From NCBI GenBank assembly GCA_016930635.1, contig JAFGGI010000019.1:9929-73928 (forward strand): a stretch of DNA of 64,000 bases. The letters are read 5' to 3'. Of this stretch, positions 42,738 through 64,000 are shown in pieces. The stretch's first letter is position 1; the number at the start of each line of letters is the position of its first letter. The DNA is from Sedimentisphaerales bacterium. GTDB lineage: Bacteria > Planctomycetota > Phycisphaerae > Sedimentisphaerales > UBA12454. The translations under genes and the position numbers were made by a program. A model generated the notes under the pieces. That model did not search any database and had not been told where the DNA came from. It saw only the letters and a list, made by a program, of their open reading frames with translations.

Positions 42738-43304
42738 ATGTTTTCTAACGTTGAACAAATGACAACTGCAACTCAGTGGGGCATCGTTATTGGTGCCTCA
42801 CTGATTGCAGCCGTTACAGACTTGCGAACAAGACGCATCCCAAATATGCTCACCTTTCCGCTGCTTATAGCAGGATTGGTCTGGGCAGGCTGGGCAAACG
42901 GTCTCTGGGGCGTAGCTAATGCAGCCGGTGCATGTTTATGGCTTGCATTTCCGTTTTTGTTATTATTCATTTTCGCCGGCGGAGGTGCCGGTGACGCCAA
43001 GCTTATGGGAGCAATCGGAGTTTGGCTGGGCATTTCTGAAGGAACCATCGTATTAGTATGCGTTATGATAGCGGGCATTATCATATCTTTATGCAAAGCA
43101 GCAATACATCAAAAACTTAAGCTGGTCCTTACGAATGTATTTATATCCGTATACACATCTATTATTTATGCCCTCAGTCATAATACAAAACCGTTAGTTG
43201 TTAATCAGAACAGCTGTGCCGTCAGCACCGACACACTGACAATTCCATACGGTATAGCAATTTTTGCAGGCGTTTGCATAGCAGGAAGTTTGAGGTTGAT
43301 ATGA
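42738..43304 (+). CDS. cpaA: prepilin peptidase (A24 family, CpaA/TadV)
   Basis: TDLRTRRIPN and GGGAGDAKLMGAIG aspartyl motifs. Confidence 0.85.
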   Translation: MFSNVEQMTTATQWGIVIGASLIAAVTDLRTRRIPNMLTFPLLIAGLVWAGWANGLWGVANAAGACLWLAFPFLLLFIFAGGGAGDAKLMGAIGVWLGISEGTIVLVCVMIAGIIISLCKAAIHQKLKLVLTNVFISVYTSIIYALSHNTKPLVVNQNSCAVSTDTLTIPYGIAIFAGVCIAGSLRLI

Positions 43305-43717
43305 ACATAAAATTGATAAAACAGACATGGAAAAAAGGTGCAGCAGCAGTTGAAGCGGCTATATTGTTTCCTCTGCTTTTACTGTTGACCTTTGCCATCA
43401 TTGAGTATGGCTGGCTATTTCTAAATGCCAATCTTGTAACTAATGCTGCTCGACACGGAGCACGTATTGCAGTCCTTCCGAATTCCACCAGCACTGATGT
43501 AACAAGCGCTATTTCGGATTTGATGAGCACTGCCAATATCACCGGCTACAGCGTAACAATTACTCCATCCGATCTTGCATCATTAACCGTCGGTCAGATT
43601 GTTACCGTGCAGATTACCGTGCCGTGGCAGCAAATAGCAATAATAAACAGTCCTTTTTTGCCAATGCCGACAACCGACTTGCAGGCTTCTGTCTCAATGG
43701 CAAAAGAAGGGCCGTAA
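43301..43717 (+). CDS. tadE: TadE-like pseudopilin
   Basis: KKGAAAVEAAILFPLLLLLTFAIIEYG TadE motif. ATGA overlap with cpaA. Confidence 0.8.
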   Translation: MNIKLIKQTWKKGAAAVEAAILFPLLLLLTFAIIEYGWLFLNANLVTNAARHGARIAVLPNSTSTDVTSAISDLMSTANITGYSVTITPSDLASLTVGQIVTVQITVPWQQIAIINSPFLPMPTTDLQASVSMAKEGP

Positions 43718-43779
43718 CGGCAACAAATTAATGTGGTTAATTTAATATACTTAATTTTTGAATAGGCAGGTGAGATAAA

Positions 43780-44757
43780 ATGAAATGGTCTATTGTATTT
43801 CTGGTAGCGTTAGGATTATTCGCAGCAATTTCAGCATCAGTATTAGTCGGTGCACTACGCGGACTTCCCGCCAGTGCCAGCGCCAGCGATTCATCCTCAA
43901 AAGATGAGGTGATCGTCGCTGCAAAACCACTGATCGCAATGTCTGCAATTGGTCCAAATGATATAAGCATACAAAATGTTTCGAAGGATAATCTGCCGGA
44001 AGGATACTTCTCCGAGCCCGTAGAGGTTATCGGCAGAATCCTCGCTGTATCCGTCGCACAGGATCAGATCTTAACACAGACCTGTCTTGTAAAAGAGGGA
44101 GACAGGGCCAGATTAGCAGCGGCTATCCCACACGGAATGCGTGCTATTACCATGAATTTTCCGAATACCTCCACTACTGGCGGTCTTTTGTATCCCGGCT
44201 GCATTGTCGATATCCTGGCATCTTTTCGCCTGCCGTCGAAAAATCGGGGCAAAGGCAAGGCAATATCTACAACTTTGCTTCAGGGTATTCAGGTGCTCGC
44301 TGTGGAAAACAGCTCTATAGTATCCAAAGATGATGAAGGCGAAAAAGATAAGGAAGAAGCATCTTATTCTGGCCCGGGAGGTAAAAAACTTGTAGTCACT
44401 TTAATGGTAAACTCAAGACAGGCCGAGGCCCTGCAGTTGGCCCGGGAGTACGGCACTGTATCAATTGTAATGAGAAATCCTCTTGATAAGTCACCTGTTA
44501 ACAGTGACTCAACTGTATTGAACGAAGGAAAACTGGCAAAGTCCGGCTCTGCGCTGACTCCTGCAGGCTTAACCCAGGACGGGAAAATAGACCTGTTGAG
44601 AAAAGTAGGCGAACATTCAGCACAAAATAATCTGCTGGACGAATTAGACGAAAACTCAGAACATCTCCCGCCAGAGATGTGGAATGTAACTGTGATTCGC
44701 GGCAAAGAAGTTGAAGTGCAAAAGGTTGATTCTCCAGATGAGGAAGATGACTATTAA
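43780..44757 (+). CDS. cpaB: Flp pilus assembly protein CpaB
   Basis: N-terminal TM, SAF-like region VIVAAKPL, RcpC/CpaB pattern. Confidence 0.8.
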   Translation: MKWSIVFLVALGLFAAISASVLVGALRGLPASASASDSSSKDEVIVAAKPLIAMSAIGPNDISIQNVSKDNLPEGYFSEPVEVIGRILAVSVAQDQILTQTCLVKEGDRARLAAAIPHGMRAITMNFPNTSTTGGLLYPGCIVDILASFRLPSKNRGKGKAISTTLLQGIQVLAVENSSIVSKDDEGEKDKEEASYSGPGGKKLVVTLMVNSRQAEALQLAREYGTVSIVMRNPLDKSPVNSDSTVLNEGKLAKSGSALTPAGLTQDGKIDLLRKVGEHSAQNNLLDELDENSEHLPPEMWNVTVIRGKEVEVQKVDSPDEEDDY

Positions 44758-44825
44758 AATGATAATACGTAAATAGACGCCTAATAAACTTTAGTCGTTT
44801 ATTGAGGTAAGTTGGAGATAAAAAA

Positions 44826-45230
44826 ATGGAAAATTATGAAATTATTCGTGAGTTTCTGGATTATTTGAAATTTGAAAAATACTTCTCTCAGCATACAGCA
44901 AAGGGTTATCATGCTGACCTCAAGCAGTTCTGTCGGTATATAAACAGCCGGCAGGATCACTGCTCATACAACCTCTCAGGCAATGAGCAGTCAGATTCCG
45001 CAACTGTGCAGCCAGAAATAAAGATAGAACAACTTCTTCTCTCGGCAACACCTGAGACCATCCGTACTTATATGGCTGCTTTAAATGACAAGCAATATTC
45101 GCAATCAACTATTGCCCGGAAGCTGGCAACATTGAGAAGCTTTTATAAATTTCTAGTCAAACGCGGCTACATAAGCAACAACCCTGTTACAGCGATAAGA
45201 ACACCCAGGCAGGACAAAAACTTGAAAAAT
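44826..45230 (+). pseudogene. XerC/XerD-type tyrosine recombinase N-terminal (core-binding/SAM-like) domain fragment; catalytic domain absent
   Basis: FLDYLKFEKYFSQHTAKGYHADLKQF...TIARKLATLRSFYKFLVKRGYISNNPV matches the core-binding domain. Has its own GGAG SD, and no stop before the secretin ORF. Confidence 0.7.
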
Positions 45231-45306
45231 ATAATAGCAATAGGAACGCCTGAGCAGGATAAGAACCTGAAAAACAAAAAAGATTATTATTTGGTGAATA
45301 GTACTA

Positions 45307-46811
45307 TGCTAAAAAATAAATTACTATTAAAGACCAAACGGATTGGTGCCCGGCAAATAGTCAGCGCTTTTATTTGCCTGTTTATGACTTGTTTACTTGT
45401 ATATGCCGGCAACGTGAACCTGGCTGATGAGGTCACACCGCTGGGTACTATAGTAATAAATGCCGGGGAATCAAAAATTATAAGAACACAGTTCCCGACA
45501 GTACGTGTGGCAGTTACAAATCCTAAAACTGTCGACGTGAAAGTGCTAACGCCCTACCAGCTTATGCTGCAGGGACTGGAGGTTGGGGAAACAGATGTTA
45601 TTGTCTGGTCCAAAGATGAGGGAGATCTCCAGCAATGGAAAGTCCTTGTTGTAATGAACATATCAACATACGCAGATAAGCTGAAGGAACTGTTCCCCAA
45701 ATGTTCTTTAGAGGTAAGCCAATCGGGCGGTACTCTTATAGTAAGAGGGTTGTTGAGAAGTGCAGACCAGGTCAGACAGCTTCACGATTACCTTGATAAG
45801 TCTGAAGTTACATATATCGATATGACAAGTGTTGCCGGCACTCAGCAGGTTCAGTTAGATGTGAAGGTTGCTGAGGTAAGCCGAACAATATGGCGGTCTT
45901 TCGGTGTAAATGCCCTTTATACCGGTGAAAATCACTTCGGGGGATCCCGTGTAGGTTCATCCAGCGGAGGAGCCCTGGTACCGTCAATTGGGATAGGTCC
46001 CCCGGAAGATACAGTTATTGGGACAAAGGCACCTACAAGTTATGCAATTAACTCAGATATCGTTGCAAGTTCTCTGGTCACTATTTTTGCCGGTATTCCC
46101 CGTTATAACTTTGAAGTATTTATTCAGACACTGGCTGAGAATCAATACTTAAAAATGCTGGCTAATCCGACTTTAGTTGCATTAAGCGGCGAAGAATCCA
46201 GCTTCCTTGCCGGCGGAGAGTTCCCGATACCTGTCGTCCAGGGTGGAAGCGGAGGAAGCTCTATTTCTGTTGAATACCGGGAATATGGTGTTCGCTTGAA
46301 TTTCAGACCAATTGTCCTCGGTGACGGCACTATCCGCCTGTTCGTTGCTCCTGAAGTAAGCGAACTAACCGATGTTGGAGTTATCATTGAAGGTTACAGC
46401 GTACCTTCATTATTGACAAGAAAAGTTGAAACAACTTTAGAACTTAAAAGCGGACAAACCTTCGCTATGGCAGGTTTAATAAAAGATGATATTGAGTCGA
46501 TAAGGGATCGTGTGCCTGGTCTTTCAAACATTCCTGTCCTGGGTACACTATTTCGTTCTACACGTTATAAGAAGAAAGAAACCGAACTTGTCGTACTCGT
46601 AACCGTTTCTTTAGTGGAACCTATTTCTTCATCAAATGTTAGACCTCTGCCGGGCTTTATGCATGCTGAGCCGAATGACTGGGATTTTTATATTGACGGC
46701 TATACTGAAAGTCAGGGGCCGCCAAATGTCCATCCTGAAGATGCCCAAAAGCTGAAAGAGCTTGGCATAGATGATCTCCTGGGGCCTGGTGCATGGGAAT
46801 CCTATAAATAG
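45307..46811 (+). CDS. cpaC: Tad secretin (CpaC/RcpA)
   Basis: Internal ATG followed by a signal-like MLKNKLLLKTKRIGARQIVSAFICLFMTCLLVYAG. BON-like N-domains and secretin C-domain (SGQTFAMAGL...VPGLSNIPVLGTLFRS). Confidence 0.85.
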
Positions 46812-46835
46812 AGTCGTAGAGATAAATAAGGACAA

Positions 46836-48008
46836 ATGATTACACAGACGCACAACATATTATTGCTGACAAAGGACAATTCCGCTGTAGATATGCTGCA
46901 TTCGGTTCTGGAAAAAAGCCAGAATATAGTATTGTCCGGCATATGTCAGGAATTTTCTGAACTTACTTCATATCTAAAGGATATTAAGTTTCAGACGATT
47001 ATTGTTGATATCGACCCGGATCCGCTGAGAATTCTGACCAAGGTCGGAACGATTACAGCTATGTATCCGGAACTGCGCATAGTAGTCATTTCAAACAGTT
47101 TCAGCAATGAACTGATCCTGCACGCAATGCACGCCGGGGCAAGACATTATCTGCTTAAAAGCTCTATTGAAAAAGAGCTTGAAAAAGTGCTGGGACAGAT
47201 ACTCTCTGAAGGCCGTAAAAGTGAGTCAAAACAAGGCTCAATAATATCTGTCATCCCTGTCAGCGGGGGCTGCGGCGCAACGACAGTAGCAGTCAATCTT
47301 GCCAACGAAATACGAATAGCCTCATCTGAAGAAATATTATTAGTTGATATGGACAGCTATTATGCAACAGTTGCATTGCATCTTGGAATATCCACCCAGT
47401 ACGGCATCTCAGATATCCTGTCTCATGAAGATATGATCGATGAAAACTTATTGAAATCCTGCTCATATAACTATATGACCGATTTTCATATATTGACAAA
47501 CAAGGCGATTATAAGTTCGCCTGAACTGAATCCGCCCAGGTATGACAACCTTACCTCTATTCTGGAAGTATGTAAAAATGCTTACAAATATACAGTAATT
47601 GACACTCCTTCCCGTCTGGATAAGGATGTTCTGGAAAAAATACTTGACCTAAGCGACAATATACTGGTCGTATTCCATGCCACCGTAAAAGATTTGAAGC
47701 TGGCGCAGTACCTTATATCATCTGTTCAGTTTCTTACCGCGCCGAATAAGATAATCCCCCTGGCAAATAACTTTGACAAACGAAATTCACTGATAAAACT
47801 GGAAGACTGTAAACAGGCATTGGGAATAGAGCATATCCACAGCATATGCAGCGAACCTCAAAAGGCGCTTAATGCTTTTAATCTCAGCCAGCCTCTTGCA
47901 CAATTCGCAGCCAAGTCAAAAATGCGCCAGGATCTGCAGCAACTTGCTTTAGCTCTAATAGGCGTTGAAGAACCAAATAAAAAAGAAACTATTTTGGGAA
48001 CTAAATAA
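46836..48008 (+). CDS. tadZ: TadZ/CpaE (receiver-like N domain + ParA/MinD-like domain)
   Basis: Receiver-like N-terminus. P-loop region reads VSGGCGATTVAVNLA, deviating from KGGxGKT. Confidence 0.75.
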   Translation: MITQTHNILLLTKDNSAVDMLHSVLEKSQNIVLSGICQEFSELTSYLKDIKFQTIIVDIDPDPLRILTKVGTITAMYPELRIVVISNSFSNELILHAMHAGARHYLLKSSIEKELEKVLGQILSEGRKSESKQGSIISVIPVSGGCGATTVAVNLANEIRIASSEEILLVDMDSYYATVALHLGISTQYGISDILSHEDMIDENLLKSCSYNYMTDFHILTNKAIISSPELNPPRYDNLTSILEVCKNAYKYTVIDTPSRLDKDVLEKILDLSDNILVVFHATVKDLKLAQYLISSVQFLTAPNKIIPLANNFDKRNSLIKLEDCKQALGIEHIHSICSEPQKALNAFNLSQPLAQFAAKSKMRQDLQQLALALIGVEEPNKKETILGTK

Positions 48009-49342
48009 TGGAACTAAAAGAAGGTCAAAACAGAAAATTGACCCTGCAGAGGTTAAAAGCAGAGGTTCATCGGAAGCTGCTTGAAGTATTAAATCTGAAC
48101 GAAGCCAGGAGAGTTTCTATAGAGCAGCTAAAGGAAGAATGCTTCAGCAAAGTCAGCGCTCTGCTGGACGAACAGCAGTTCCCGATATCAGGGCCGGAAA
48201 AACAACAACTGCTGCACGACATTATGGACGAGGTCTTCGGATTTGGACCTTTAGGTACACTTTTGAGAGATCCTTCCGTTAGTGATATTTTAGTGAACGG
48301 CCCGTTCCAGATATACGTTGAACGAAGCGGCCTGCTCGAACTTACAGACTTATCCTTTGCCGACGATGACCATTTGATGCGGGTGATTCAGCGAATCGGA
48401 ACTACCGTAGGCCGACGAATTGACGAAAGCACTCCAATGCTCGACGCTCGTCTGCTGGACGGCTCCCGTGTAAACGCAATTATACCCCCCCTTGCGATAG
48501 ACGGACCTGCGTTGAGTATCAGACGTTTCAGCGGAATCCCTATTGATATCAAGAAACTAATCGAAATAGAATCTATAGCTGAAGAGATGGCCTTTTTCAT
48601 CGAGGCCTGTGTCCAGTGCAAAATGAATGTCCTGATATCAGGAGGAACCGGTACTGGTAAAACTACCATACTCAACGCCCTGTCAAGGTGGATACCTCAG
48701 GGAGAACGTGTGGTAACAATAGAAGATGCAGCGGAATTAAAGCTGCAGCGGGATCACGTCGTACGTCTTGAGACAAGACCCCCTAATGTAGAAGGCGAAG
48801 GAACCATCACCCAGAGGGATCTGCTGCGAAATACCTTGAGAATGAGGCCTGACAGAATCATCATCGGTGAGGTTCGCGGTGCAGAAGCTATCGATATGCT
48901 CCAGGCAATGAATACCGGACACGAAGGCTCAATGACCACGGTACATGCCAACAGTCCGCGTGATGCTATGAGAAGACTGGAAAATATGGCCAGTCTGGCA
49001 GGAGTAAATTTCCCGCTGAAGGCAATTCGCGAGCAGATAAGCTCTGCGATAAACATTTTAGTCCATTTGCAGAGAATGACCGGCGGCCAGAGAAAAGTCG
49101 TCAGTGTTGCTGAAATAACAGGAATGGAAATGGATACGATCTGCCTTCACGATATCTTCCGTTTCGTCCAGGATGGAGTCGATGATGAAGGCAAAGCCAA
49201 AGGACATTTCGAAGCGTGCGGCGTCTGCCCTCAGATATTAAACAGGCTAAAGGAAAAAGGTATGAAAATGCCGCCCGATATGTTCCAGCACAAGATTATC
49301 GGAAAAAGTGTAAAAAAGAAAGAAGCAGTAAAAGTTCGATAA
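48008..49342 (+). CDS. cpaF: Tad pilus ATPase CpaF/TadA
   Basis: Walker A GGTGTGKTT, Asp and His boxes, IIGEVRG. Confidence 0.92.
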   Translation: MELKEGQNRKLTLQRLKAEVHRKLLEVLNLNEARRVSIEQLKEECFSKVSALLDEQQFPISGPEKQQLLHDIMDEVFGFGPLGTLLRDPSVSDILVNGPFQIYVERSGLLELTDLSFADDDHLMRVIQRIGTTVGRRIDESTPMLDARLLDGSRVNAIIPPLAIDGPALSIRRFSGIPIDIKKLIEIESIAEEMAFFIEACVQCKMNVLISGGTGTGKTTILNALSRWIPQGERVVTIEDAAELKLQRDHVVRLETRPPNVEGEGTITQRDLLRNTLRMRPDRIIIGEVRGAEAIDMLQAMNTGHEGSMTTVHANSPRDAMRRLENMASLAGVNFPLKAIREQISSAINILVHLQRMTGGQRKVVSVAEITGMEMDTICLHDIFRFVQDGVDDEGKAKGHFEACGVCPQILNRLKEKGMKMPPDMFQHKIIGKSVKKKEAVKVR

Positions 49343-49366
49343 TAACCAAAGGATACGGTAAATATT

Positions 49367-50350
49367 ATGAGTCCTGACAAATTAGTAAATGTCGTTATTA
49401 TGTTGCTCGTATTCGGGTTGATTTTCTCTGTTTGGGGAATCTGTATCTGCCTATGGATAGTACAATATCTCCGCAAGGCCCGTTCTGCCCGTGCAAAACT
49501 GGGGCTGGATGACAAGCAGGAAGGCGAAGACGAATCAAGCATGCTGAGATTATGGTTCGACTCATACGAAGAGAAAAAACCGACTAAAGCAGTAAAGAAA
49601 AAATCTCTGGCTGTATACCTGGATAAAATGATAGCCCAAACCGGCTGGCATGCTTCGGTCAGGACAATTATATTAAGAATTTTGGCAGCAATCGGTTTGA
49701 CCTCTGTAATAGCATATTTTGTAAGCGGCGATATTGTTGTAGGATTTGGTGCCGCTGCAGTAGCTATATTTATTGCATGGACTTTTATACAAAAAAGAAT
49801 TGCCAAACAAACCGCCCTGTTTGAAAGGCAATTGGCTGATGCATTAGGTATATCCTCCCGTGCACTTCGTGCGGGTCATCCGCTGGTTGAAACTTTCCAG
49901 TTAATTGCTGACGAGATAGGCGAGCCTTTAGGGGATATCTTTGCCAGAATATGCCAGGAACAGTCTCTGGGCCTTGGCTTAAAGGACTCTATACGAAATG
50001 TAGCAGAGACTACCTATAACAACGAACTGAAACTTTTTGCAACTGCGATCTCTATACAGTTTCAAAGCGGAGGCAATCTGGCCGACCTGATGGACAGGTT
50101 GGCATCTGTTATCCGGGCCAGAATGAGATTAAATCGGCGTATTCGTGTTATAACGGCACAGACTCAATTCAGCAAAAAAGTGCTGATCGCACTGCCTATT
50201 ATGCTTTTCTTCCTGCTCAATGTGGTAAATGCCGAATATATGCAGCCGTTATATAACACTGTGGCCGGCAAAGCAATGCTGATAATCGGAAGTGCCAGCG
50301 TATTAATGGGAACATGGATGATGAACCGTCTTTCTGCAATAAAGCTTTAG
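49367..50350 (+). CDS. tadB: TadB inner-membrane platform protein
   Basis: T2SSF-type domain and position in the locus. Confidence 0.8.
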   Translation: MSPDKLVNVVIMLLVFGLIFSVWGICICLWIVQYLRKARSARAKLGLDDKQEGEDESSMLRLWFDSYEEKKPTKAVKKKSLAVYLDKMIAQTGWHASVRTIILRILAAIGLTSVIAYFVSGDIVVGFGAAAVAIFIAWTFIQKRIAKQTALFERQLADALGISSRALRAGHPLVETFQLIADEIGEPLGDIFARICQEQSLGLGLKDSIRNVAETTYNNELKLFATAISIQFQSGGNLADLMDRLASVIRARMRLNRRIRVITAQTQFSKKVLIALPIMLFFLLNVVNAEYMQPLYNTVAGKAMLIIGSASVLMGTWMMNRLSAIKL

Positions 50351-50366
50351 AATAAGAAAGTATAAG

Positions 50367-51296
50367 ATGAATATTTCAAGCTCTGAAATTATAATTCCGG
50401 TACTTACATTTTTATCCGTTGTAACCCTCGGCGGATTAATTATGTTCATCCAGGCCAATAGAAAGAAATCATTGGCAATGAAAATGCTGCAGCATGAAGA
50501 TGCTCTTCCAGGACAAACCGGTGAAGGTGATGTGAAAAAGAAAGATGCTCTTCTGGAAATTTTCGAAAAAATAGGAAATTTCGTCTCCCACGGCCAGACC
50601 ACAACAACTCTTTCAGAACAGCTTATACGTGCCGGATATCATAGTAAATCCGCCTCGGCGATGTACACAGGTGTCAAAATGCTGCTGTTCTTTGTCGGAA
50701 TGGTAATGACCGCATGTATGGTTATAAATATCAACATTAATCTTATAACAAAAATGACTCTCATTTTTGTCGGCGGTGTCGTCTTCTTCTTTTTGCCTAA
50801 TGCCAAAATAATGGTGCAGTTCAAAAAACGCAGCCGTGAGATCAATCGATACCTGCCAGAGGCAATAGACCTGCTTGAAATATGCGTCTCTTCCGGAATA
50901 GGCCTGGATATGGCCTGGAACATCGTTTCCAACGAAATAAAACAGGTCTGCCCTATTCTGGCCGGTGCGATGGATATCAGCAATTTTGAAATGCATTTAG
51001 GTGCAAGCAGAGTAACCGCATTAAAACACATGGCAGCACGTACCGGCGTCGATGCTCTGTCTTCACTGGCAGCTATACTTGTTCAAACCGAAAGGTTCGG
51101 CACAAGTATCGGCTCGACACTGCAGGTATTTGCCACGTCAATGAGAGAAGAAAGAAATTTCGCCGTGGAAGAAAATGCGGAAAAAATGGCGGTAAAGCTG
51201 ATTATTCCGATGGTATTGTTTATTTTCCCGGCAGCCGTTATCACCGTAGTAGGACCGGCTGCTATTGTTATAGCAAAAGTAATGATGACACAATAA
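50367..51296 (+). CDS. tadC: TadC inner-membrane platform protein
   Basis: T2SSF-type domain and position in the locus. Confidence 0.8.
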   Translation: MNISSSEIIIPVLTFLSVVTLGGLIMFIQANRKKSLAMKMLQHEDALPGQTGEGDVKKKDALLEIFEKIGNFVSHGQTTTTLSEQLIRAGYHSKSASAMYTGVKMLLFFVGMVMTACMVINININLITKMTLIFVGGVVFFFLPNAKIMVQFKKRSREINRYLPEAIDLLEICVSSGIGLDMAWNIVSNEIKQVCPILAGAMDISNFEMHLGASRVTALKHMAARTGVDALSSLAAILVQTERFGTSIGSTLQVFATSMREERNFAVEENAEKMAVKLIIPMVLFIFPAAVITVVGPAAIVIAKVMMTQ

Positions 51297-51331
51297 TTGA
51301 CAAAAGAAAATTTAATTAAGGATATTAAATC

Positions 51332-51793
51332 ATGAAAGTATACAAAGTCATAGTTGTTTGCCTGGCTGTTATCGCCTTGGCTGGTTGTTCGGAAAACACT
51401 CAAAAGAGTCACGACACCCATGAACTTAACAGCGAGCTAATAAGGGCCTACAGCCAAATTTCTATTAACAACGCGATTGTCTCACGACACACACTGTTCC
51501 CCTACCACTTCGTTGACAACAGTGCCGAGCTGAACGAACTCGGCAAAAACGATCTGGGCGTGTTAATAAAACACTATAAGGACAATCCGGGGACATTGAA
51601 TATAACTCAGGGTGACGCTACGGATAAGATCTATCTTGCGAGAGTTACAGGTATTATCGAAAAGCTGGGTGATGCCGGTGTCGATAAAAGCAAGATGATC
51701 ATTTTAGACGGCATACAGGGCGGCCGCGGCATGCCTTCAGAAGAAGTCTTAGCTATTTTGCAGGAGGAAGTTACGAATAGTCAAAGTGAATAA
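51332..51793 (+). CDS. lipoprotein of the Tad locus (CpaD-like position)
   Basis: Lipobox LAGC at residues 17-20. No further family call. Confidence 0.5.
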   Translation: MKVYKVIVVCLAVIALAGCSENTQKSHDTHELNSELIRAYSQISINNAIVSRHTLFPYHFVDNSAELNELGKNDLGVLIKHYKDNPGTLNITQGDATDKIYLARVTGIIEKLGDAGVDKSKMIILDGIQGGRGMPSEEVLAILQEEVTNSQSE

Positions 51794-51812
51794 TTATATA
51801 AGGGATTGAGTT

Positions 51813-52475
51813 ATGAAAACTATAACGAAAAAATCAGGTTATCTCAGACAGGTTATAATAATGAGTATTATCTGCCTGGTTGGCCTGTGCGGCTGTAAGG
51901 AATCTGCACAAAAAAGAAAAATGCCAAAAAACAAACCTTTAGGCCCCGACTATTCAAATGTCAAATTCGAACAGGCTAAAGACCCTGCACCAACAGTCAA
52001 AACACTCTATGTTATGGCAGGTATTCTTCAAAATCAGGGCCAATACGCCAAAAGCGAAGCTGTGATGAAAAGTATTATTCATCAGTATCCTAAATCACTG
52101 CCTGCTTACAACCACCTGGCTCAGATGCAATTACAGCAGGGACGAAAAAAAGAGGCAATCGAAACAATGCAAAAAGGTTTGGCTATATATCCCGATGATA
52201 CAACACTGATAAACAATATCGGGATATGCTGGCTGATCTGCAACGAATATGAAAAAGCCCTGGAAATGTTTACCAAAGCAGCCGACATCGTACCTCAAAG
52301 CAAGAGATATCGCGCAAATGCCGCTTTGACATTGTCGCTGATGGAACGCTACGATGAATCATTAGCTCTCTTTGAGCAGATACTGCCGAAGAAAGATGCG
52401 ATTTATAATGTGAATGCAATTCGTAAAAATAAAATGATTGGCCCTCCTCGCTTAAGGGGAATGGAGGCCGGCTGA
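51813..52475 (+). CDS. tadD: TPR lipoprotein TadD
   Basis: Lipobox LCGC, TPR repeats, position in the locus. Confidence 0.7.
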   Translation: MKTITKKSGYLRQVIIMSIICLVGLCGCKESAQKRKMPKNKPLGPDYSNVKFEQAKDPAPTVKTLYVMAGILQNQGQYAKSEAVMKSIIHQYPKSLPAYNHLAQMQLQQGRKKEAIETMQKGLAIYPDDTTLINNIGICWLICNEYEKALEMFTKAADIVPQSKRYRANAALTLSLMERYDESLALFEQILPKKDAIYNVNAIRKNKMIGPPRLRGMEAG

Positions 52476-52517
52476 TAAATCATAAAAAATTGAATTATTT
52501 GAAGAGATATTTTTGAT

Positions 52518-52973
52518 ATGTTGTTCAGAAATATAAAACGCGAACGGAGAAAGGAAAAAAGAAACTACTGCAGCTGGCCTATCTGGTTTGCCGCTAACCG
52601 CAGCAACAGATTCTTCTACGGTGATATCATAGATTACTCCTCTGATTCTCTATCACTAATCTGCAAAAGCGGCACAGTTGCCCTGCATCCAGGCTGTATG
52701 ATAAAGATATACTTCGGCTACTCAAATTCCACCCTCAAAAAATCCCACGGCGTCGAAATGTTCTCATGCGAAGGGAATATTTACAGGGTTGACAACCTGG
52801 GCAGACAGTTTTTACATCGAAACAGCCGAATCGCCGTCAGGTTAGACCGGCAGCTGCCTTTCGCCGCATGCCGGATCAAGGCACTAAAGGTTATATTTGA
52901 GGTTATGGAAGAGCCTAACTCTAATAAACAAGAGCAGTTATGCTCAGCAGGAATAAGCACCGAGTCCGACTAA
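52518..52973 (+). CDS. PilZ-like domain protein
   Basis: N-terminal RKEKR (RxxxR) followed ~30 aa later by DYSSDS (D-x-S-x-x-S in place of DxSxxG). Confidence 0.45.
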   Translation: MLFRNIKRERRKEKRNYCSWPIWFAANRSNRFFYGDIIDYSSDSLSLICKSGTVALHPGCMIKIYFGYSNSTLKKSHGVEMFSCEGNIYRVDNLGRQFLHRNSRIAVRLDRQLPFAACRIKALKVIFEVMEEPNSNKQEQLCSAGISTESD

Positions 52974-53023
52974 TATATTGTATACTTTGTATAGAAGGAC
53001 TCCTTTTTTAGGAGGGTTGTAAG

Positions 53024-54394
53024 ATGAAGGAGCTAAAGAAAAATAAGCATTCGCAATCAAAATTCTCCATCCGCAATGGCATAGTATATGTATGGGCAAT
53101 AATTGTTTTACTGCTGCTTTTAACAACTACCGGTTTATCCCTTGATATTGGAAAAGTTATTTACGTAGGTCATCAACTGCAAAATGCCGCCGATGCTGCC
53201 GCTCTTGCCGGTGCCCGTGTGGTAAAATACAATCAGCCATTAGCCTGCCAGGAAGCTGCTGAAACCGCTCTGCAAAATGCCGCCAACGGACAAAATATTC
53301 AGCTTTCATCCGAAGATATTGTCGTAGGCCGTTACAACTTAGCAACAGGCACCTTCACTCCGACTACCATCGCTGCCAACGCTATACAGGTTACCGCCAA
53401 ACTCACTGACGATTCGGCAACAGGTCCGGTTTCTCTGAATTTTGGTTCTATATTTAATATCAACACCTGCAATCTTACCCGTACTGCAATCGCATACGGC
53501 GCCGGAGGAACCGGTGCAGGTATGATTTCCCTGGCACGTGATGGTATCGGATTATCCATCAACGGCGATATACATCTTACAGTAGAGGACGGCGCTATTC
53601 TGGTTAATTCCGAAGATGATGACGCTGTACGTATTATAGGCCAGCCGGATATTAACGCCCTTGAACTGGATGTAGTCGGTGATGTCGATGCTACCGGCGG
53701 ATTTGAATTCGACCCGAATTTCCCGGTAAACACGGGTATGTGGCCAAATCCAGACCCGCTATGTCCCGACCCGTATAATGGTGATTGTCTGCCTGAACCG
53801 GTCTGGGACCCTGATTATGATATGTCCCCTTCTTCCGGAGAAATAATAAGTGTCACCGGCGGAACAGCAGTATTTGAGCCGGGTTATTATTCAGGCGGGT
53901 TCAATTTCACCGGTGGTGATGTAGTATTTAAGCCCGGCATATATATTCTCGATGGTTCAAAAAAATCAGGATTAGTTATAGGCGGAAATACCAACGTCTG
54001 TGCAAAAGGCGTTATGTTCTACGTCGTAGGCGACGGTATTGTAAATATCGACGGCTCAGGCTCTATAGAATTAAGCCCGGTTCAGTTTGATAATGATGAA
54101 TTCTGTGACACCTCTTACAGCTATCCGCCAGGCACCGATTTTAGTTTTGAAGAAGTAGGAATTTATCAAGCTCGTACCAATACGAACGAGGCCACTATAG
54201 TCGGAACAGGTTCGCTGGATCTTAACGGAACATTATATTTTCCTGAGAATCAGCTTAATATCTCTGGTAACGGTGACGGCTTCGGCGATCAGCTCATCGC
54301 TAAAACAATTGAAGTCTCCGGCGGCGGATATATGGTCATCAGATACGACGGCAGGAACCGAACCCCCGCAAACAGGGCTTTTCTCGTCAAATAG
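53024..54394 (+). CDS. tadG: TadG-like pilus-associated protein
   Basis: N-terminal TM plus GLSLDIGKVIYVGHQLQNAADAAALAGA (TadG N-terminal motif). Confidence 0.75.
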   Translation: MKELKKNKHSQSKFSIRNGIVYVWAIIVLLLLLTTTGLSLDIGKVIYVGHQLQNAADAAALAGARVVKYNQPLACQEAAETALQNAANGQNIQLSSEDIVVGRYNLATGTFTPTTIAANAIQVTAKLTDDSATGPVSLNFGSIFNINTCNLTRTAIAYGAGGTGAGMISLARDGIGLSINGDIHLTVEDGAILVNSEDDDAVRIIGQPDINALELDVVGDVDATGGFEFDPNFPVNTGMWPNPDPLCPDPYNGDCLPEPVWDPDYDMSPSSGEIISVTGGTAVFEPGYYSGGFNFTGGDVVFKPGIYILDGSKKSGLVIGGNTNVCAKGVMFYVVGDGIVNIDGSGSIELSPVQFDNDEFCDTSYSYPPGTDFSFEEVGIYQARTNTNEATIVGTGSLDLNGTLYFPENQLNISGNGDGFGDQLIAKTIEVSGGGYMVIRYDGRNRTPANRAFLVK

Positions 54395-60798: not shown

Positions 60799-60813
60799 AA
60801 AGATAATTATAAG

Positions 60814-60893
60814 CCCCGTCAGAAAAAAAGCAAAGACACAATTTCCTTACTATAGAACGCCTGTGACAATAAGATTACAGTTTTCTAACGGGG
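60814..60893. repeat. inverted repeat related to the 33317-33384 element
   Basis: CCCCGTCAGAAAA (60814-60826) versus TTTTCTAACGGGG (60881-60893), 12 of 13 complementary. The left end GCCCCGTyAGArAmAAGCA is shared with 33317. Confidence 0.6.
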
Positions 60894-60923
60894 TAAAAAA
60901 CAATGAGGAAAAATAAAGAATAT

Positions 60924-61700
60924 TCAGAATGGTATCTCTTTGCTGAATCTGCCTATCTTCATATCCGGCATTCTGACGTCATAGCTGTTCTTTTCCGCAC
61001 CTGCTTTATTTACATGGCCATCACCATACAAAATATTCGCTTTCTCCCTGTGTCTGAAATGCACATATTGGCCTCCTGTTTTTTCAACATAGTGCCATTC
61101 TTCAATCATTGGGCTGGTCGGACTGGCAGGAGACTGGAAAGTATTTACCTGCGCACTGTCTGTAAAAATAACTACATTACTCACGCCGCCATTATAACTG
61201 TCAAAGTCCACGACTTTTTTATGGCTCGAGTTAACTAAATCAACGAATAACTTGCTGTTAGCTCCATATGTCATCCATTTACTGCTGTATTTTGGTTTAT
61301 ATCTGCCGTCGCCATAAGGAAATGCCGGACATATCTCAACTGAATCGTACTGTTCTATATATGGGTACAGCCTGGCACGTTCCCTAAACAACTGACGCTT
61401 ACCTTCCGGAAGAGAAAAACTGCTGCCCGGCTCAAAACCAAAATACCATAATACTCCCAGCTGCCCGGCATCATCAAAAGCGTATTCGGCCAGAGGGAAA
61501 ACTTTTCGGTCATGGTCTTCAAGATACATCATGAATGCCAGACCAAACTGACCCAGATTTGAAGAGCACATCACCATCTTAGCTTGTTGTCGTGCACTGG
61601 CCATTACCGGGACAAAAATCGAAACCAGAAGTGCCATTATAGAAATCACAACTAAAATCTCTACCAGCGTAAAACCTTTATTTGTATTGTCCTTCAGCAT
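60924..61700 (-). CDS. prepilin-type N-terminal cleavage/methylation protein with H-X9-DG (DUF1559) domain
   Basis: KGFTLVEILVVISIMALL prepilin motif. C-terminal HREKANILYGDGH (H-X9-DG). Start set at internal ATG 61700, 1 nt after the upstream stop. Confidence 0.85.
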   Translation of the reverse strand: MLKDNTNKGFTLVEILVVISIMALLVSIFVPVMASARQQAKMVMCSSNLGQFGLAFMMYLEDHDRKVFPLAEYAFDDAGQLGVLWYFGFEPGSSFSLPEGKRQLFRERARLYPYIEQYDSVEICPAFPYGDGRYKPKYSSKWMTYGANSKLFVDLVNSSHKKVVDFDSYNGGVSNVVIFTDSAQVNTFQSPASPTSPMIEEWHYVEKTGGQYVHFRHREKANILYGDGHVNKAGAEKNSYDVRMPDMKIGRFSKEIPF

Positions 61701-61701
61701 A

Positions 61702-62865
61702 CTAATACCATCTCGCTGTTTGGCCCCATTGTTTTGCAAGTACTGCAAAATCTTTTAAATCGACAATTCCATCCCTGTTGATATCACCTCTGATATACTC
61801 ACCCTGCAGTAAATAATCTTCAGTCATCAGCATAATATCATAGTAATCGACGATGCCGTCTCCATCCAGATCCGCAGACCAATTGCTCATAGATTCAACC
61901 GCAAATGTCTGCAGCTCATAATCTCCATAGCCTGGAGGTATCATGCCCGAGTCAAATTCGCTTTTTCCATAATACATAACACCGTTGATAATATCAGCAG
62001 CAATCCCGCAAAAACGCCATTGAGGTTTTGGGAAACCATACGGATTGGCGTATATGTCGCCGTCTATTTCGATAACATTAAAATCGTTCGGTTCATTTGT
62101 CGGTATAATCTTAGCAACCCCGACATAACTGCCTATATAAATGTTATAATCACTGTCGATAACTATTGAATCCGACCCGGCCAGAACCACATCATTCACT
62201 ATAATCTCCGGAACAACTGTAAAATTACTATCCTGCACAAATGTATCTATTTGTCCTCTGCTTATTCTGTGGATATTCACATTGCCCAGACCGCTGCCGT
62301 CGTACATCGGCTTAAAATCAGCCAGGTAAAGATTATCAGCAGCGTCAAAACCTATCGCTCCGGAATTCCTATTGGAAACTTGTACCAATTCTGTTTCATT
62401 GCCATCCCCGGCCATCTTCAGCATATACACCGTATTGTTACTCGCAGCATCTACACCGTTGGCAAAAATCTGGTCGGCCCTGAAACGTGAAGCGATCGAA
62501 TAATAGTTTCTGGTAAGATTTATTTTTTCCTCGGCCGTTTGTCCAACAATATCGGCATATATAACCTTACTGGACAAACCTGTCGGCAATATCGCATCAT
62601 TAAAATCGGTGACAAACGCAAAATCAGCAGGGTCCCACGTAAAACCGGCTCCAGCTCCGGCAAAGATAACTATAAAAGCATCCAGCCCCGGCTCATATCT
62701 ATATAAATTCAGTCCGTTGAAAGCATAAAGACTTTCATCGCCGTAACAAAAATCAATCCTTGTAAACCCGCTGCCGCTTACATTATCAGCAGCAGGTGGA
62801 ATTTGCGCCGCCATCGAAGAACTGGTTACTATTAAAAGAACAATTATGAAAATTTTATTTATCAA
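61702..62865 (-). CDS. secreted propeller-like protein with tandem dockerin-like repeats
   Basis: Signal peptide. Recurrent DxxxN(L/I)Y(L/I) strands (DAADNLYLADF, DSDYNIYIGSY). C-terminal DLDGDGIVDYYD...DINRDGIVDLKDFAVLAKQW. Confidence 0.6.
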   Translation of the reverse strand: MINKIFIIVLLIVTSSSMAAQIPPAADNVSGSGFTRIDFCYGDESLYAFNGLNLYRYEPGLDAFIVIFAGAGAGFTWDPADFAFVTDFNDAILPTGLSSKVIYADIVGQTAEEKINLTRNYYSIASRFRADQIFANGVDAASNNTVYMLKMAGDGNETELVQVSNRNSGAIGFDAADNLYLADFKPMYDGSGLGNVNIHRISRGQIDTFVQDSNFTVVPEIIVNDVVLAGSDSIVIDSDYNIYIGSYVGVAKIIPTNEPNDFNVIEIDGDIYANPYGFPKPQWRFCGIAADIINGVMYYGKSEFDSGMIPPGYGDYELQTFAVESMSNWSADLDGDGIVDYYDIMLMTEDYLLQGEYIRGDINRDGIVDLKDFAVLAKQWGQTARWY

Positions 62866-63635
62866 ATTTCCGCTTTCCTTCTTCTTAAAAATACAGCTCC
62901 CGCAAGCATAGCAAATATCGTCGCCGGCTCCGGTACAACATCTGCAAAACCTGCTACATCTGCGATACCACTGTCGTCGGCAATATCAGTGACACGAACA
63001 TACATTATCCAGTCTAAAGGTTCACTCAGCCCTATTGCATTTGATATATCAACCTGTGCTCCGCCGCAGCCGCCGAGAAAATCCGCTTCCACCTCCCCCG
63101 GTAGTCTATTCATATATGGTACATCTGCAGGTGTAGCGTGAAAAAAATTTCCCGCCGATGCCGTGTAGGGATAAAGGGCATCCGCATAAGTATCCGCTAT
63201 TTCATAAAATAAAACTCCATCCTGGCTGACTTCTATTTTGGCAGGTTCAAAAAATGCTCCGGCAATTCTGCCTTCATTTTCATAATCACATGCAAAAAAA
63301 CTGTTTCCAAATACAAGCAGGTCGGTGCCATACTCAACATCTAATGGATTATTCATAACCTGATGGTCAAACGCAATTGTTATCGACCCGCCATTGCCCA
63401 GGCTGACTACATCAGTTTCTTTATAAGGAGCCGACGTTATTGATATCGGCCAGGTGTATCCTTCATAGCTGTCCTCGGCGGGCGGTGCACCGAGAACAAC
63501 TGAAGGATCATTATAATTTGGCTCAGCCCCGAAGCCCTGGCTGAAGTTCACAACTGAATCGGCATAAGGTGTGGCTTTTGATATCATACAACACATAAAC
63601 ATAACCATCAAAAAAACAACTGCCTGACATCTCAT
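62862..63635 (-). CDS. PEP-CTERM-anchored secreted protein
   Basis: Signal peptide. C-terminal VPEPATIFAMLAGAVFLRRRK (PEP-CTERM sorting signal). AGGAGG SD. Confidence 0.8.
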   Translation of the reverse strand: MRCQAVVFLMVMFMCCMISKATPYADSVVNFSQGFGAEPNYNDPSVVLGAPPAEDSYEGYTWPISITSAPYKETDVVSLGNGGSITIAFDHQVMNNPLDVEYGTDLLVFGNSFFACDYENEGRIAGAFFEPAKIEVSQDGVLFYEIADTYADALYPYTASAGNFFHATPADVPYMNRLPGEVEADFLGGCGGAQVDISNAIGLSEPLDWIMYVRVTDIADDSGIADVAGFADVVPEPATIFAMLAGAVFLRRRKAEI

Positions 63636-63685
63636 CTTTTCATTCCTCCTAAAGCTGAACCAGGTAAATATAATTAAAAAACAAT

Positions 63686-63720
63686 AAAAAAAACCGCCGT
63701 TCCCGCAAAAGGAACGACGG
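63686..63720 (-). terminator. intrinsic terminator (riboswitch expression platform)
   Basis: On the minus-strand RNA, CCGUCGUUCC/GGAACGGCGG stem (one G-U) followed by U8. On the plus strand the same position would be a C-A mismatch. Confidence 0.75.
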
Positions 63721-63761
63721 CTTTAATCTTCCACAAATAACACCCATACAAGGTATATTCG

Positions 63762-63961
63762 CTGGTGTTCCTTACGCGAGAACTCTCAACAAACTACTGA
63801 TTACAGACAGGTTTTCTGACTTGCGTCTCGACGAAAGAACCCTTCCCATTCAAAAAGAACAGTGGGACAATTTCTCTCGGCCTTTTCGATACAACTCGAA
63901 ACAACGCTTACAGCGGCGCGACCGCCACGGATTTTCACCGTGTTCCCTTTTCTGCAACCAG
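63762..63961 (-). ncRNA. cobalamin (B12) riboswitch
   Basis: The minus strand reads AAGGGAACACGGTGAAAATCCGTGGCGGTCGCGCCGCTGTAAGC ... GTCCCACTG...ATGGGAAGGG ... GCAAGTCAGAAAACCTGTC (B12-box-like). Possible P1 CTGGT/ACCAG. Confidence 0.85.
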
Positions 63962-63991
63962 ATATAATTTTTTCAAAGAACAATTTGTAAA
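63962..63991 (-). promoter_or_regulatory. sigma-70-type promoter for the riboswitch transcript
   Basis: The minus strand reads TTTACA-18 nt-TTATAT immediately upstream of the riboswitch 5' end. Confidence 0.45.
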
Positions 63992-64000
63992 ATAACAACT

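Follow-up and report, generated by a model that had tools for sequence, protein, structure and literature searches.

In operons of the E. coli type, a cobalamin riboswitch controls the vitamin B12 uptake genes btuB and btuFCD. In Bacteroides, the seven-bladed propeller BtuG forms the 'lid' of BtuB (PMC6143338, PMC10404256), and B. thetaiotaomicron additionally exposes the surface B12-binding lipoproteins BtuH2 and BtuG1 (PMC8941943, PMC10404256). Homologues of BtuH have so far been reported from gut Bacteroidetes and three (predicted) Firmicutes (PMC8941943). DUF4465 proteins also bind B12 in B. thetaiotaomicron, and a common B12-binding function was reported after testing selected members from the Planctomycetota-Verrucomicrobiota-Chlamydiota (PVC) group (PMC13398666). 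For Planctomycetes, a fibre- and crateriform-associated uptake of macromolecules has been proposed, in which the cargo binds to pilus-like fibres and reaches the periplasm without vesicles (Boedeker et al. 2017, PMC5394234). We analysed a 64-kb stretch of DNA, called the window throughout, from a metagenome-assembled genome of Sedimentisphaerales (Phycisphaerae, Planctomycetota; 42% G+C), in which a cobalamin riboswitch precedes three genes, g1, g2 and g3. An earlier note on this DNA had proposed that the three products form a B12-riboswitch-controlled device for corrinoid capture or hand-over at the cell surface, which would give a functional handle on the DUF1559 family. This proposal is supported, at the level of sequence, by the conserved linkage between riboswitch and genes and by the homology of g1. 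The locus appears to encode a riboswitch-controlled surface B12-capture system based on a BtuH-type domain, with a different anchor and different accessory proteins, in which a dedicated pseudopilin would replace the BtuB-BtuG core.

On the minus strand, the RF00174 riboswitch is followed by a terminator, an AGGAGG-ATG translation start and the closely spaced genes g1, g2 and g3. Gene g1 (62862-63635, 257 aa) encodes a signal peptide, a BtuH-type, putatively B12-binding beta-sandwich and a PEP-CTERM anchor; g2 (61702-62865, 387 aa) a secreted six-bladed beta-propeller with a C-terminal type I dockerin; and g3 (60924-61700, 258 aa counted from the ATG at 61700) a prepilin-type H-X9-DG/DUF1559 pseudopilin. 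As had been described, a Shine-Dalgarno sequence AGGAGG (63650-63645) lies 9 nt ahead of the g1 ATG (63635), g1 and g2 overlap by 4 nt, and a single base separates the g2 stop from the g3 ATG. The overlap consists of a TTGA shared by the g1 stop and the g2 start, the start codon of g2 being TTG, not ATG. The three genes are translationally coupled and lie behind the cobalamin riboswitch and a conserved terminator.

The riboswitch, initially recognised by its core strings, is matched by the RF00174 covariance model at 63789-63992 with 77.9 bits (gathering threshold 31.5, E 1.6e-18), and the match spans model positions 1-189 of 189, i.e. the full model. Every one of the quoted core strings, including the B12-box core, is present in the sequence. 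An Rfam scan found no other riboswitch in the window. When 63961-63685 is folded (z = -5.3 versus shuffles), an 11-bp P1 helix (63961-63951 with 63807-63797) closes a multi-helix aptamer with a core at 63797-63961. Since P1 closes at 63961, this position, previously given as the upper limit, is the real 5' edge of the aptamer; the Rfam alignment beyond it pairs poorly. The intrinsic terminator (63686-63724) was likewise correctly read, with a 10-bp stem (63720-63711/63703-63694), one G-U pair and U8 at 63693-63686, and the stem can be extended to 63724-63690 (-23 kcal/mol, RNAfold). Comparison of 10 loci yields a 13-pair helix in which 100% of the cells pair canonically and three pairs show compensatory double changes. 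Terminator-like hairpins are found downstream of the riboswitch also in the distant loci L013, L024, L029, L056 and L097 (L-numbers denote fetched genomic loci).

Between aptamer and terminator, comparison of the leaders revealed a hairpin, GUUC-UCGCGUAAG-GAAC (63767-63783), which is a candidate P13/kissing-loop element. The string GUUCUCGCG..GGAAC is kept in 9/10 leaders, while L018 has GUUUCCGCG..GGAAC. The CGCG of the hairpin loop is complementary to CGCG in the GGUCGCGCC loop of the aptamer. The 3' strand of the hairpin, AAGGAAC (63773-63767), pairs with the 5' arm of the terminator, GUUCCUU, in the nascent-transcript fold and is a candidate anti-terminator. Following the usual logic of cobalamin riboswitches, docking of this hairpin, stabilised by the ligand, would free the terminator to form. 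With corrinoid plentiful, the ligand-bound aptamer would thus stabilise the GUUC..GAAC hairpin, the terminator would form and the operon would be off; with corrinoid scarce, AAGGAAC would pair with the terminator arm and transcription would continue. Both the RNA sensor family and this off-switch logic are those of the canonical btuB/btuFCD operons.

A proposed promoter, TTTACA-18-TTATAT, did not hold up. The hexamers exist (minus strand, 63962-63991), but they are chance-like, with 16 promoter-like sites versus 9.6 +/- 2.8 in shuffles, and a consensus scan of the region returned TTTACA-16-AATTAT instead, with 9/12 matching positions. Such matches are common in AT-rich DNA and hence weak evidence. 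Moreover, a transcription start ~7 nt past the TTATAT box would cut off half of P1.

The linkage of the riboswitch to these genes is conserved. Homologues of g2 over the full length number 27, at 46-60% identity; the contigs of 7 of them were fetched, and g1, g2 and g3 occur in identical order in 7/7. In agreement with the proposed association, the riboswitch lies ahead of this gene trio in all relatives whose upstream DNA reaches far enough (L001, L002, where it is cut, L003, L004, L005, L007, L008 and L009), scoring 69-89 bits against RF00174 where complete. The same arrangement is seen in L017-L019. For a wider survey, the g3 subfamily was scanned with an alignment lacking the generic N-terminal part of pilins (A3) in one genome per GTDB species, which gave g3 relatives at 341 loci of species-representative genomes, and a covariance model built from nine of the riboswitches was applied to the best 80 of these. 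A B12 riboswitch, always on the strand of the gene, was found upstream in 54/80 loci and in 48/56 of those with the full 3 kb of upstream sequence. The chance of finding a riboswitch within 3 kb upstream of a random gene is well under 1%. Riboswitch calls that were re-checked were confirmed by Rfam with 58-125 bits. Among the 26 loci lacking a match, 16 have less than 3 kb upstream, and most of the 26 have g1 or gX genes that extend past the start of the fetched DNA.

Several gene arrangements occur behind the riboswitch. Riboswitch-g1-g2-g3 is the Sedimentisphaerales type, and riboswitch-[g1]-gX-g3 the common form in Verrucomicrobiota, in which gX is a lectin-like partner with no Pfam match and a non-significant legume-lectin match. 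One locus has the riboswitch followed by a g2-like gene and g3 (L036), and two have g3 followed by an unknown protein (L029, L056). In L013 the riboswitch (86 bits) precedes an unknown 328-aa gX and a pseudopilin, and L012, from Verrucomicrobiales, shows a g1-like fragment with PEP-CTERM, gX and a pseudopilin on a contig that ends before any riboswitch. In L024 the slot of g1 is filled by a DUF4465 protein with PEP-CTERM (PF14717, E 1.9e-51), i.e. by the fold of BtuJ1/BtuJ2 (PMC13398666). The logic is the same as for BtuJ, a small surface-anchored beta-sandwich binder, whereas g1 itself is not a member of DUF4465: neither it nor g2 or g3 matches PF14717, and hhalign against the DUF4465 protein aligns the PEP-CTERM tail only. 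The parts of the system had been thought specific to Planctomycetota, which is not the case. Judged from the best 80 of the 341 loci, the pseudopilin subfamily is found mostly in Verrucomicrobiota, with some members in Planctomycetota, Auribacterota and Omnitrophota, and the g1 family has ~4,500 cluster representatives and also occurs in a btuB-btuFC operon of Binatia.

The g1 protein is built from a signal peptide, a domain of ~210 aa and a PEP-CTERM tail, VPEPATIFAMLAGAVFLRRRK, that comprises the PEP motif, a transmembrane helix and a basic tail. Its designation as a PEP-CTERM protein is borne out by the NCBIfam model TIGR02595 (23.4 bits, cut-off 16), though not by Pfam (18.1, cut-off 20.7). 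The ~210-aa domain has no Pfam match, and no Pfam model covers the BtuH-type domain. Searching the PDB with a first g1 profile (A2) returned a single sequence at E <= 10, 7biz_A (E 0.004), which is BtuH2 of Bacteroides thetaiotaomicron with bound cyanocobalamin (PMC8941943); the match sits at the start of its C-terminal B12-binding domain. After divergent Verrucomicrobiota sequences had been added, the profile (A5) gave two matches over profile positions 38-234, 8blw_B (E 4.1e-9) and 7biz_A (E 1e-3). 8BLW chain B is BtuG1, which has a C-terminal H-domain of ~250 residues homologous to BtuH2 (PMC10404256), and the A5 match lies inside this H-domain. In a reverse phmmer search of 2,000 sequences with the BtuG1-H fragment, all 38 matches at E <= 0.01 were g1-family or g1-position ORFs (open reading frames), among them a longer riboswitch-proximal ORF in L052, with zero matches in the g2 family, the g3 family or the decoy ORFs of that set. 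One member of the g1 family, P0076, bridges the two groups, matching BtuH2 at E 1.9e-17 and the g1 of the window at E 3e-4 in a search of 5.8 billion sequences. Motifs common to both are PGxG, VSLGxGGxIxxxFDHxIxN, DFxVxGNxF, EPxxVxVSxDG..WY, GGxGxxI and WIxFVR. By these profiles g1 is a remote homologue of the B12-binding domain of BtuH and BtuG1-H, and its binding of cobalamin is putative. The earlier statement that none of the products resembles B12 transport proteins is thus wrong for g1, and in view of the profile homology the resemblance to BtuH is one of homology, not of analogy alone.

Like BtuH2 and BtuG1-H, g1 is encoded in a B12-riboswitch-regulated locus, carries a signal peptide and is predicted to be surface-exposed. 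BtuG1 likewise pairs its H-domain with a beta-propeller, but here g1 and g2 are separate proteins and neither a PKD domain nor a propeller is fused to g1. Further differences are the anchoring by PEP-CTERM in place of a lipobox, and an operon that lacks BtuB and BtuG and has a pseudopilin as the partner. The g1 domain family comprises 4,507 cluster representatives at E <= 1e-3, many of them multidomain forms, and its anchors interchange between PEP-CTERM, dockerin and a ~400-aa beta-helix (L009). In L009/L010 (4085-6001), the g1 domain is fused to this right-handed beta-helix (Pel9A-like) and has no PEP-CTERM, with riboswitch, g2 and g3 as elsewhere. Residues 101-151 of g1 show a weak NCBIfam match, far under the cut-off, to the Leptospira LIC_13355 lipoprotein family (E 0.0034), possibly a further offshoot of the family of BtuH-like domains.

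The g2 protein consists of an all-beta body between a signal peptide and a type I dockerin. It had been described as propeller-like, and the AlphaFold2 (AF2) model (pLDDT 84, pTM 0.82) is indeed six-bladed; its Foldseek matches are to six-bladed, generic propellers (Drp35, SMP30, the designed Pizza; E ~1e-8). The dockerin was correctly assigned (PF00404, 26.2 bits, cut-off 22.9), with the duplicated calcium-binding loops DLDGDGIVD and DINRDGIVD and matches to PDB dockerins at E 6.8e-7. As with BtuG, a secreted propeller stands beside an H-domain protein in a B12-riboswitch operon. A relationship to BtuG was nevertheless rejected, as g2 has about six blades rather than seven, a dockerin tail, no Cys lipobox, no BtuB partner nearby and no match to BtuG in the PDB sequence search or the Foldseek top 50. 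The window encodes another dockerin-tailed protein at 19234-22050 (-), 938 aa long with a DUF4082 and a type I dockerin domain, which suggests a broader dockerin-based surface display in this organism.

The reading of g3 as an H-X9-DG pseudopilin was upheld by the domain models concerned. The prepilin site KG/FTLVEILVVISIMALL (G/FTLVE, with Glu+5) passes PF07963 (30.5 bits, cut-off 21.2) and TIGR02532 (27.5, cut-off 16.3), the DUF1559 region passes PF07596 (24.0, cut-off 23.3), and the C-terminal H-X9-DG, present as HREKANILYGDG, passes TIGR04294 (19.3, cut-off 19). With the pseudopilins of the type II secretion system (T2SS), type IV pilins and the H-X9-DG/DUF1559 expansion of PVC bacteria, g3 shares the cleavage/methylation motif, the DUF1559 region and H-X9-DG. 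It is, in contrast, no orthologue of GspG-K: among GspG/H/I/J/K the best match is GspG with 32.6 bits against a cut-off of 88.85, and the rest are under their cut-offs. Instead it belongs to a separate subfamily under riboswitch control, with homologues at 33-66% identity over most of the length of g3 and a motif of its own, DSAQVNTFQxPASPxNPMxEEW; a second tier of full-length homologues (33-43% identity) includes some from Verrucomicrobiota. In the survey, the 341 loci were picked up by two sequence patterns, D[SC]A[QM]VNx[FW]Q together with [NH]P[ML]xEE[FW][YH][YM][VI]. The motif of the globular domain is constant whichever partner is encoded, be it g1 and g2, gX, DUF4465 or other unknown proteins.

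Some further pseudopilin loci deserve mention. L015 (6948-7736) has a DUF1559-like pseudopilin without DSAQVNTFQ and with ~25% identity to g3, located after a dockerin-tailed g1-like gene and a B12 riboswitch; it is a second, more distant DUF1559 subfamily behind a B12 riboswitch. The same arrangement is found in L098 (6930-7781), where the second gene encodes 283 aa with no Pfam match. In one clade, the g3-type pseudopilin is followed on the same strand by a ~720-aa DUF5107 protein (L022 3104-5515, L023 4010-6112, L024 3654-5879, L025 3969-6140, L036 2569-4740), with TPR-type matches in 3/5 loci. It may be an additional component of the module.

Genes of known B12 transport occur around several of the related loci. 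L097, from a Candidatus Binatia, contains a riboswitch (91.6 bits) followed by genes for a 461-aa protein, a g1-like protein, a TonB-dependent receptor, a 429-aa protein, a BtuF-type protein and a FecCD/BtuC permease, and is a canonical B12 import operon containing a relative of g1. In 12/80 PVC loci, BtuF- or BtuC-like genes lie beside or within the g3 operon, either divergent from the riboswitch (L023-L025), between gX and g3 (L062, L065, L067, L074, L079, L094) or downstream (L055, L071, L086). Apart from L097, phmmer detected no BtuB-like gene in the fetched loci, beyond which more distant genes are possible. Unlike uptake operons of the E. coli type, the operon of the window contains no TonB-dependent receptor, and by Pfam there is no recurrent receptor family among 67 large ORFs that neighbour the 80 PVC loci, where singletons are possible. 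The ~700-aa ORFs downstream of g3, considered as receptor candidates, are instead DUF5107 plus TPR, DUF6600 or pullulanase-like proteins. Among the 67 large ORFs, which neighbour L017-L096, two have the B12-binding domain PF02310 and three a radical-SAM domain; B12-dependent radical-SAM enzymes adjoining the module are possible.

Taken together, a B12 riboswitch, two independent, known B12-binding folds beside the pseudopilin, and BtuF/BtuC neighbours make corrinoid acquisition by far the best reading; the operon is very probably riboswitch-controlled and serves this purpose. The fuller explanation, a B12-repressed operon for corrinoid scavenging at the cell surface, appears probable to us. 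In this mechanism g1, tethered or aided by g2, would capture extracellular corrinoids. A type II secretion or type IV pilus-like machine would assemble g3, and g3 would couple capture to passage across the outer membrane and to hand-over to a periplasmic BtuF/BtuCD importer encoded elsewhere.

A number of observations weigh against this explanation. The loci were picked via g3, hence the universality of g3 within the set is given by construction. The window contains no BtuB, BtuF or BtuC in its 64 kb. The g3 profile found no match in the PDB, i.e. no solved relative. In the case of g2, BtuG, to which its propeller had been likened, is absent from both the PDB sequence search and the Foldseek top 50. 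For g1, the AF2 model (pLDDT 91.6) did not retrieve 7BIZ or 8BLW among the top 50 Foldseek matches in the PDB, the best being weak CBM32/discoidin matches (E ~1e-3), so that the link to BtuH rests on sequence profiles. In BtuH2, B12 is contacted by Gln333, Asn399, His476, Tyr510, Trp511, Trp577 and Leu578, with Asn399 contacting the phosphate of B12 (PMC8941943). Only Asn399, which aligns with the invariant N111 of g1, and possibly Tyr510, which falls opposite a conserved Tyr/Phe where the alignment is gappy, correspond to conserved g1 residues; Gln333 is not conserved in the g1 of the window and the remaining contact residues are not alignable.

The role of g3 is the least certain part. For the pseudopilin itself, a part in uptake or hand-over, as opposed to exporting or displaying the binders, is put forward only tentatively, as somewhat short of an even chance; the constant g3 motif, the lack of receptors nearby and the presence of BtuF/BtuC lean towards passage and hand-over. 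It is rather unlikely, in our estimate, that g3 is a cargo-specific pseudopilin for a T2SS that moves g1 and g2 (or gX or DUF4465) across the outer membrane while B12 enters via a BtuB encoded elsewhere. Such an adaptor would share the regulation of the binders, being of use only while these are produced, and g3 has a canonical prepilin leader, GspG as its best NCBIfam match and, almost always, at least one secreted partner encoded with it; in Binatia, moreover, the g1-type binder stands alongside a TonB-dependent receptor, as BtuH does in Bacteroides (PMC8941943). Yet the motif DSAQVNTFQxPASPxNPMxEE is unchanged across partners, which fits a constant ligand or machine better than the recognition of cargo, the GspG score stays far under the equivalog cut-off, and near the 80 loci it is BtuF/BtuC that recur and not a TonB-dependent receptor. 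A more far-reaching form of the uptake model, which we regard as unlikely, would have the surface binders (BtuH-like g1, DUF4465, gX) load the dedicated H-X9-DG pseudopilin, with its assembly and retraction via a secretin bringing corrinoid to periplasmic BtuF; the DUF1559/H-X9-DG paralogues, hundreds per PVC genome, would then be substrate-specific uptake pilins and not secretion components. The fibre-associated uptake proposed for Planctomycetes is a precedent from the same phylum; it differs from our case in that it concerned dextran and GFP in Planctomycetia and was tied neither to particular genes nor to B12 or DUF1559 (Boedeker et al. 2017, PMC5394234).

Two further accounts were weighed. 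In one, g3 never enters a fibre but uses its N-terminal helix to hold a corrinoid-binding domain at the inner membrane, and would there be BtuF-like or feed BtuF. The Pfam short name of DUF1559, SBP_bac_10, would suit such a protein, as would the direct adjacency of g3 to BtuF/BtuC genes in 12 loci and its position as the first gene after the riboswitch in L029 and L056. We judge this improbable: several operons encode both BtuF and g3, which makes simple redundancy unlikely, the G/FTLVE site with Glu+5 is a signature of prepilin peptidase processing and fibre assembly, and the g3 profile detected no similarity to periplasmic binding proteins in the PDB. The other account takes B12 as a signal and not a nutrient, a corrinoid cue, e.g. 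the proximity of a producer, regulating surface proteins for adhesion or attachment that would not themselves deal with B12. Proteins with PEP-CTERM or dockerin, and pilin-like proteins, are typical parts of adhesion systems or of a matrix, and neither g2 nor gX has B12-related homology; against this, the B12-binding domain to which g1 is homologous has been defined by crystallography, DUF4465 B12 binders fill the same slot, BtuF/BtuC genes are neighbours, and a g1 relative lies within a btuB-btuFC operon, which leaves a pure signalling role highly improbable.

The surroundings of the operon contain further features. Downstream, a 125-nt gap (60799-60923, -) separates g3 from a comF-like gene; it contains TTGCTT-16-TATAAT, found by eye, and no terminator. 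The comF and murJ genes probably have their own promoter, with some read-through from the riboswitch operon possible. They were ruled out as part of the unit by this promoter-like site and by the loss of synteny in L009 and in Verrucomicrobiota. Relatives encode, immediately ahead of the riboswitch, a conserved ~240-aa coiled-coil protein with a C-terminal transmembrane helix (L001 3923-4660, L003 4016-4741, L007 4129-4845, L009 2835-3599; 40-69% identity); it does not lie behind the riboswitch, and its counterpart here would fall just past the end of the window. About 6.5 kb from the operon lies a complete Tad/Flp-type pilus cluster (42738-54394, +) with an A24 prepilin peptidase, TadE, RcpC/CpaB, a secretin, a TadZ-like protein, a T2SSE ATPase, two T2SSF proteins and a TadG-like protein. 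The first ~120 residues of the secretin ORF (44826-46811, +) match the phage-integrase SAM-like N-terminal domain (PF02899, E 1.1e-16), an odd pairing, possibly because the ORF is over-extended or is fused to the remnant of an integrase.

A full-text literature search found no paper that connects cobalamin riboswitches with pseudopilins, prepilins, DUF1559 or PEP-CTERM proteins. The few publications in the literature searched that mention DUF1559 survey genomes, transcriptomes or essential genes; none has the family as its main subject and none ties it to B12. Scavenging of corrinoids shapes microbial communities, and B12 uptake is essentially undescribed in PVC bacteria, which include abundant lineages of soil, sediment, freshwater and gut. 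The locus extends the BtuH domain to a family of thousands of proteins that has no Pfam model, and indicates that this domain is used with varied anchors (PEP-CTERM, dockerin, beta-helix). By tying a ligand-specific RNA sensor to a defined subfamily, it offers a first hint at what the very large, uncharacterised DUF1559/H-X9-DG family may do, and makes it conceivable that a vitamin of 1.3 kDa crosses the outer membrane by a receptor-independent route.

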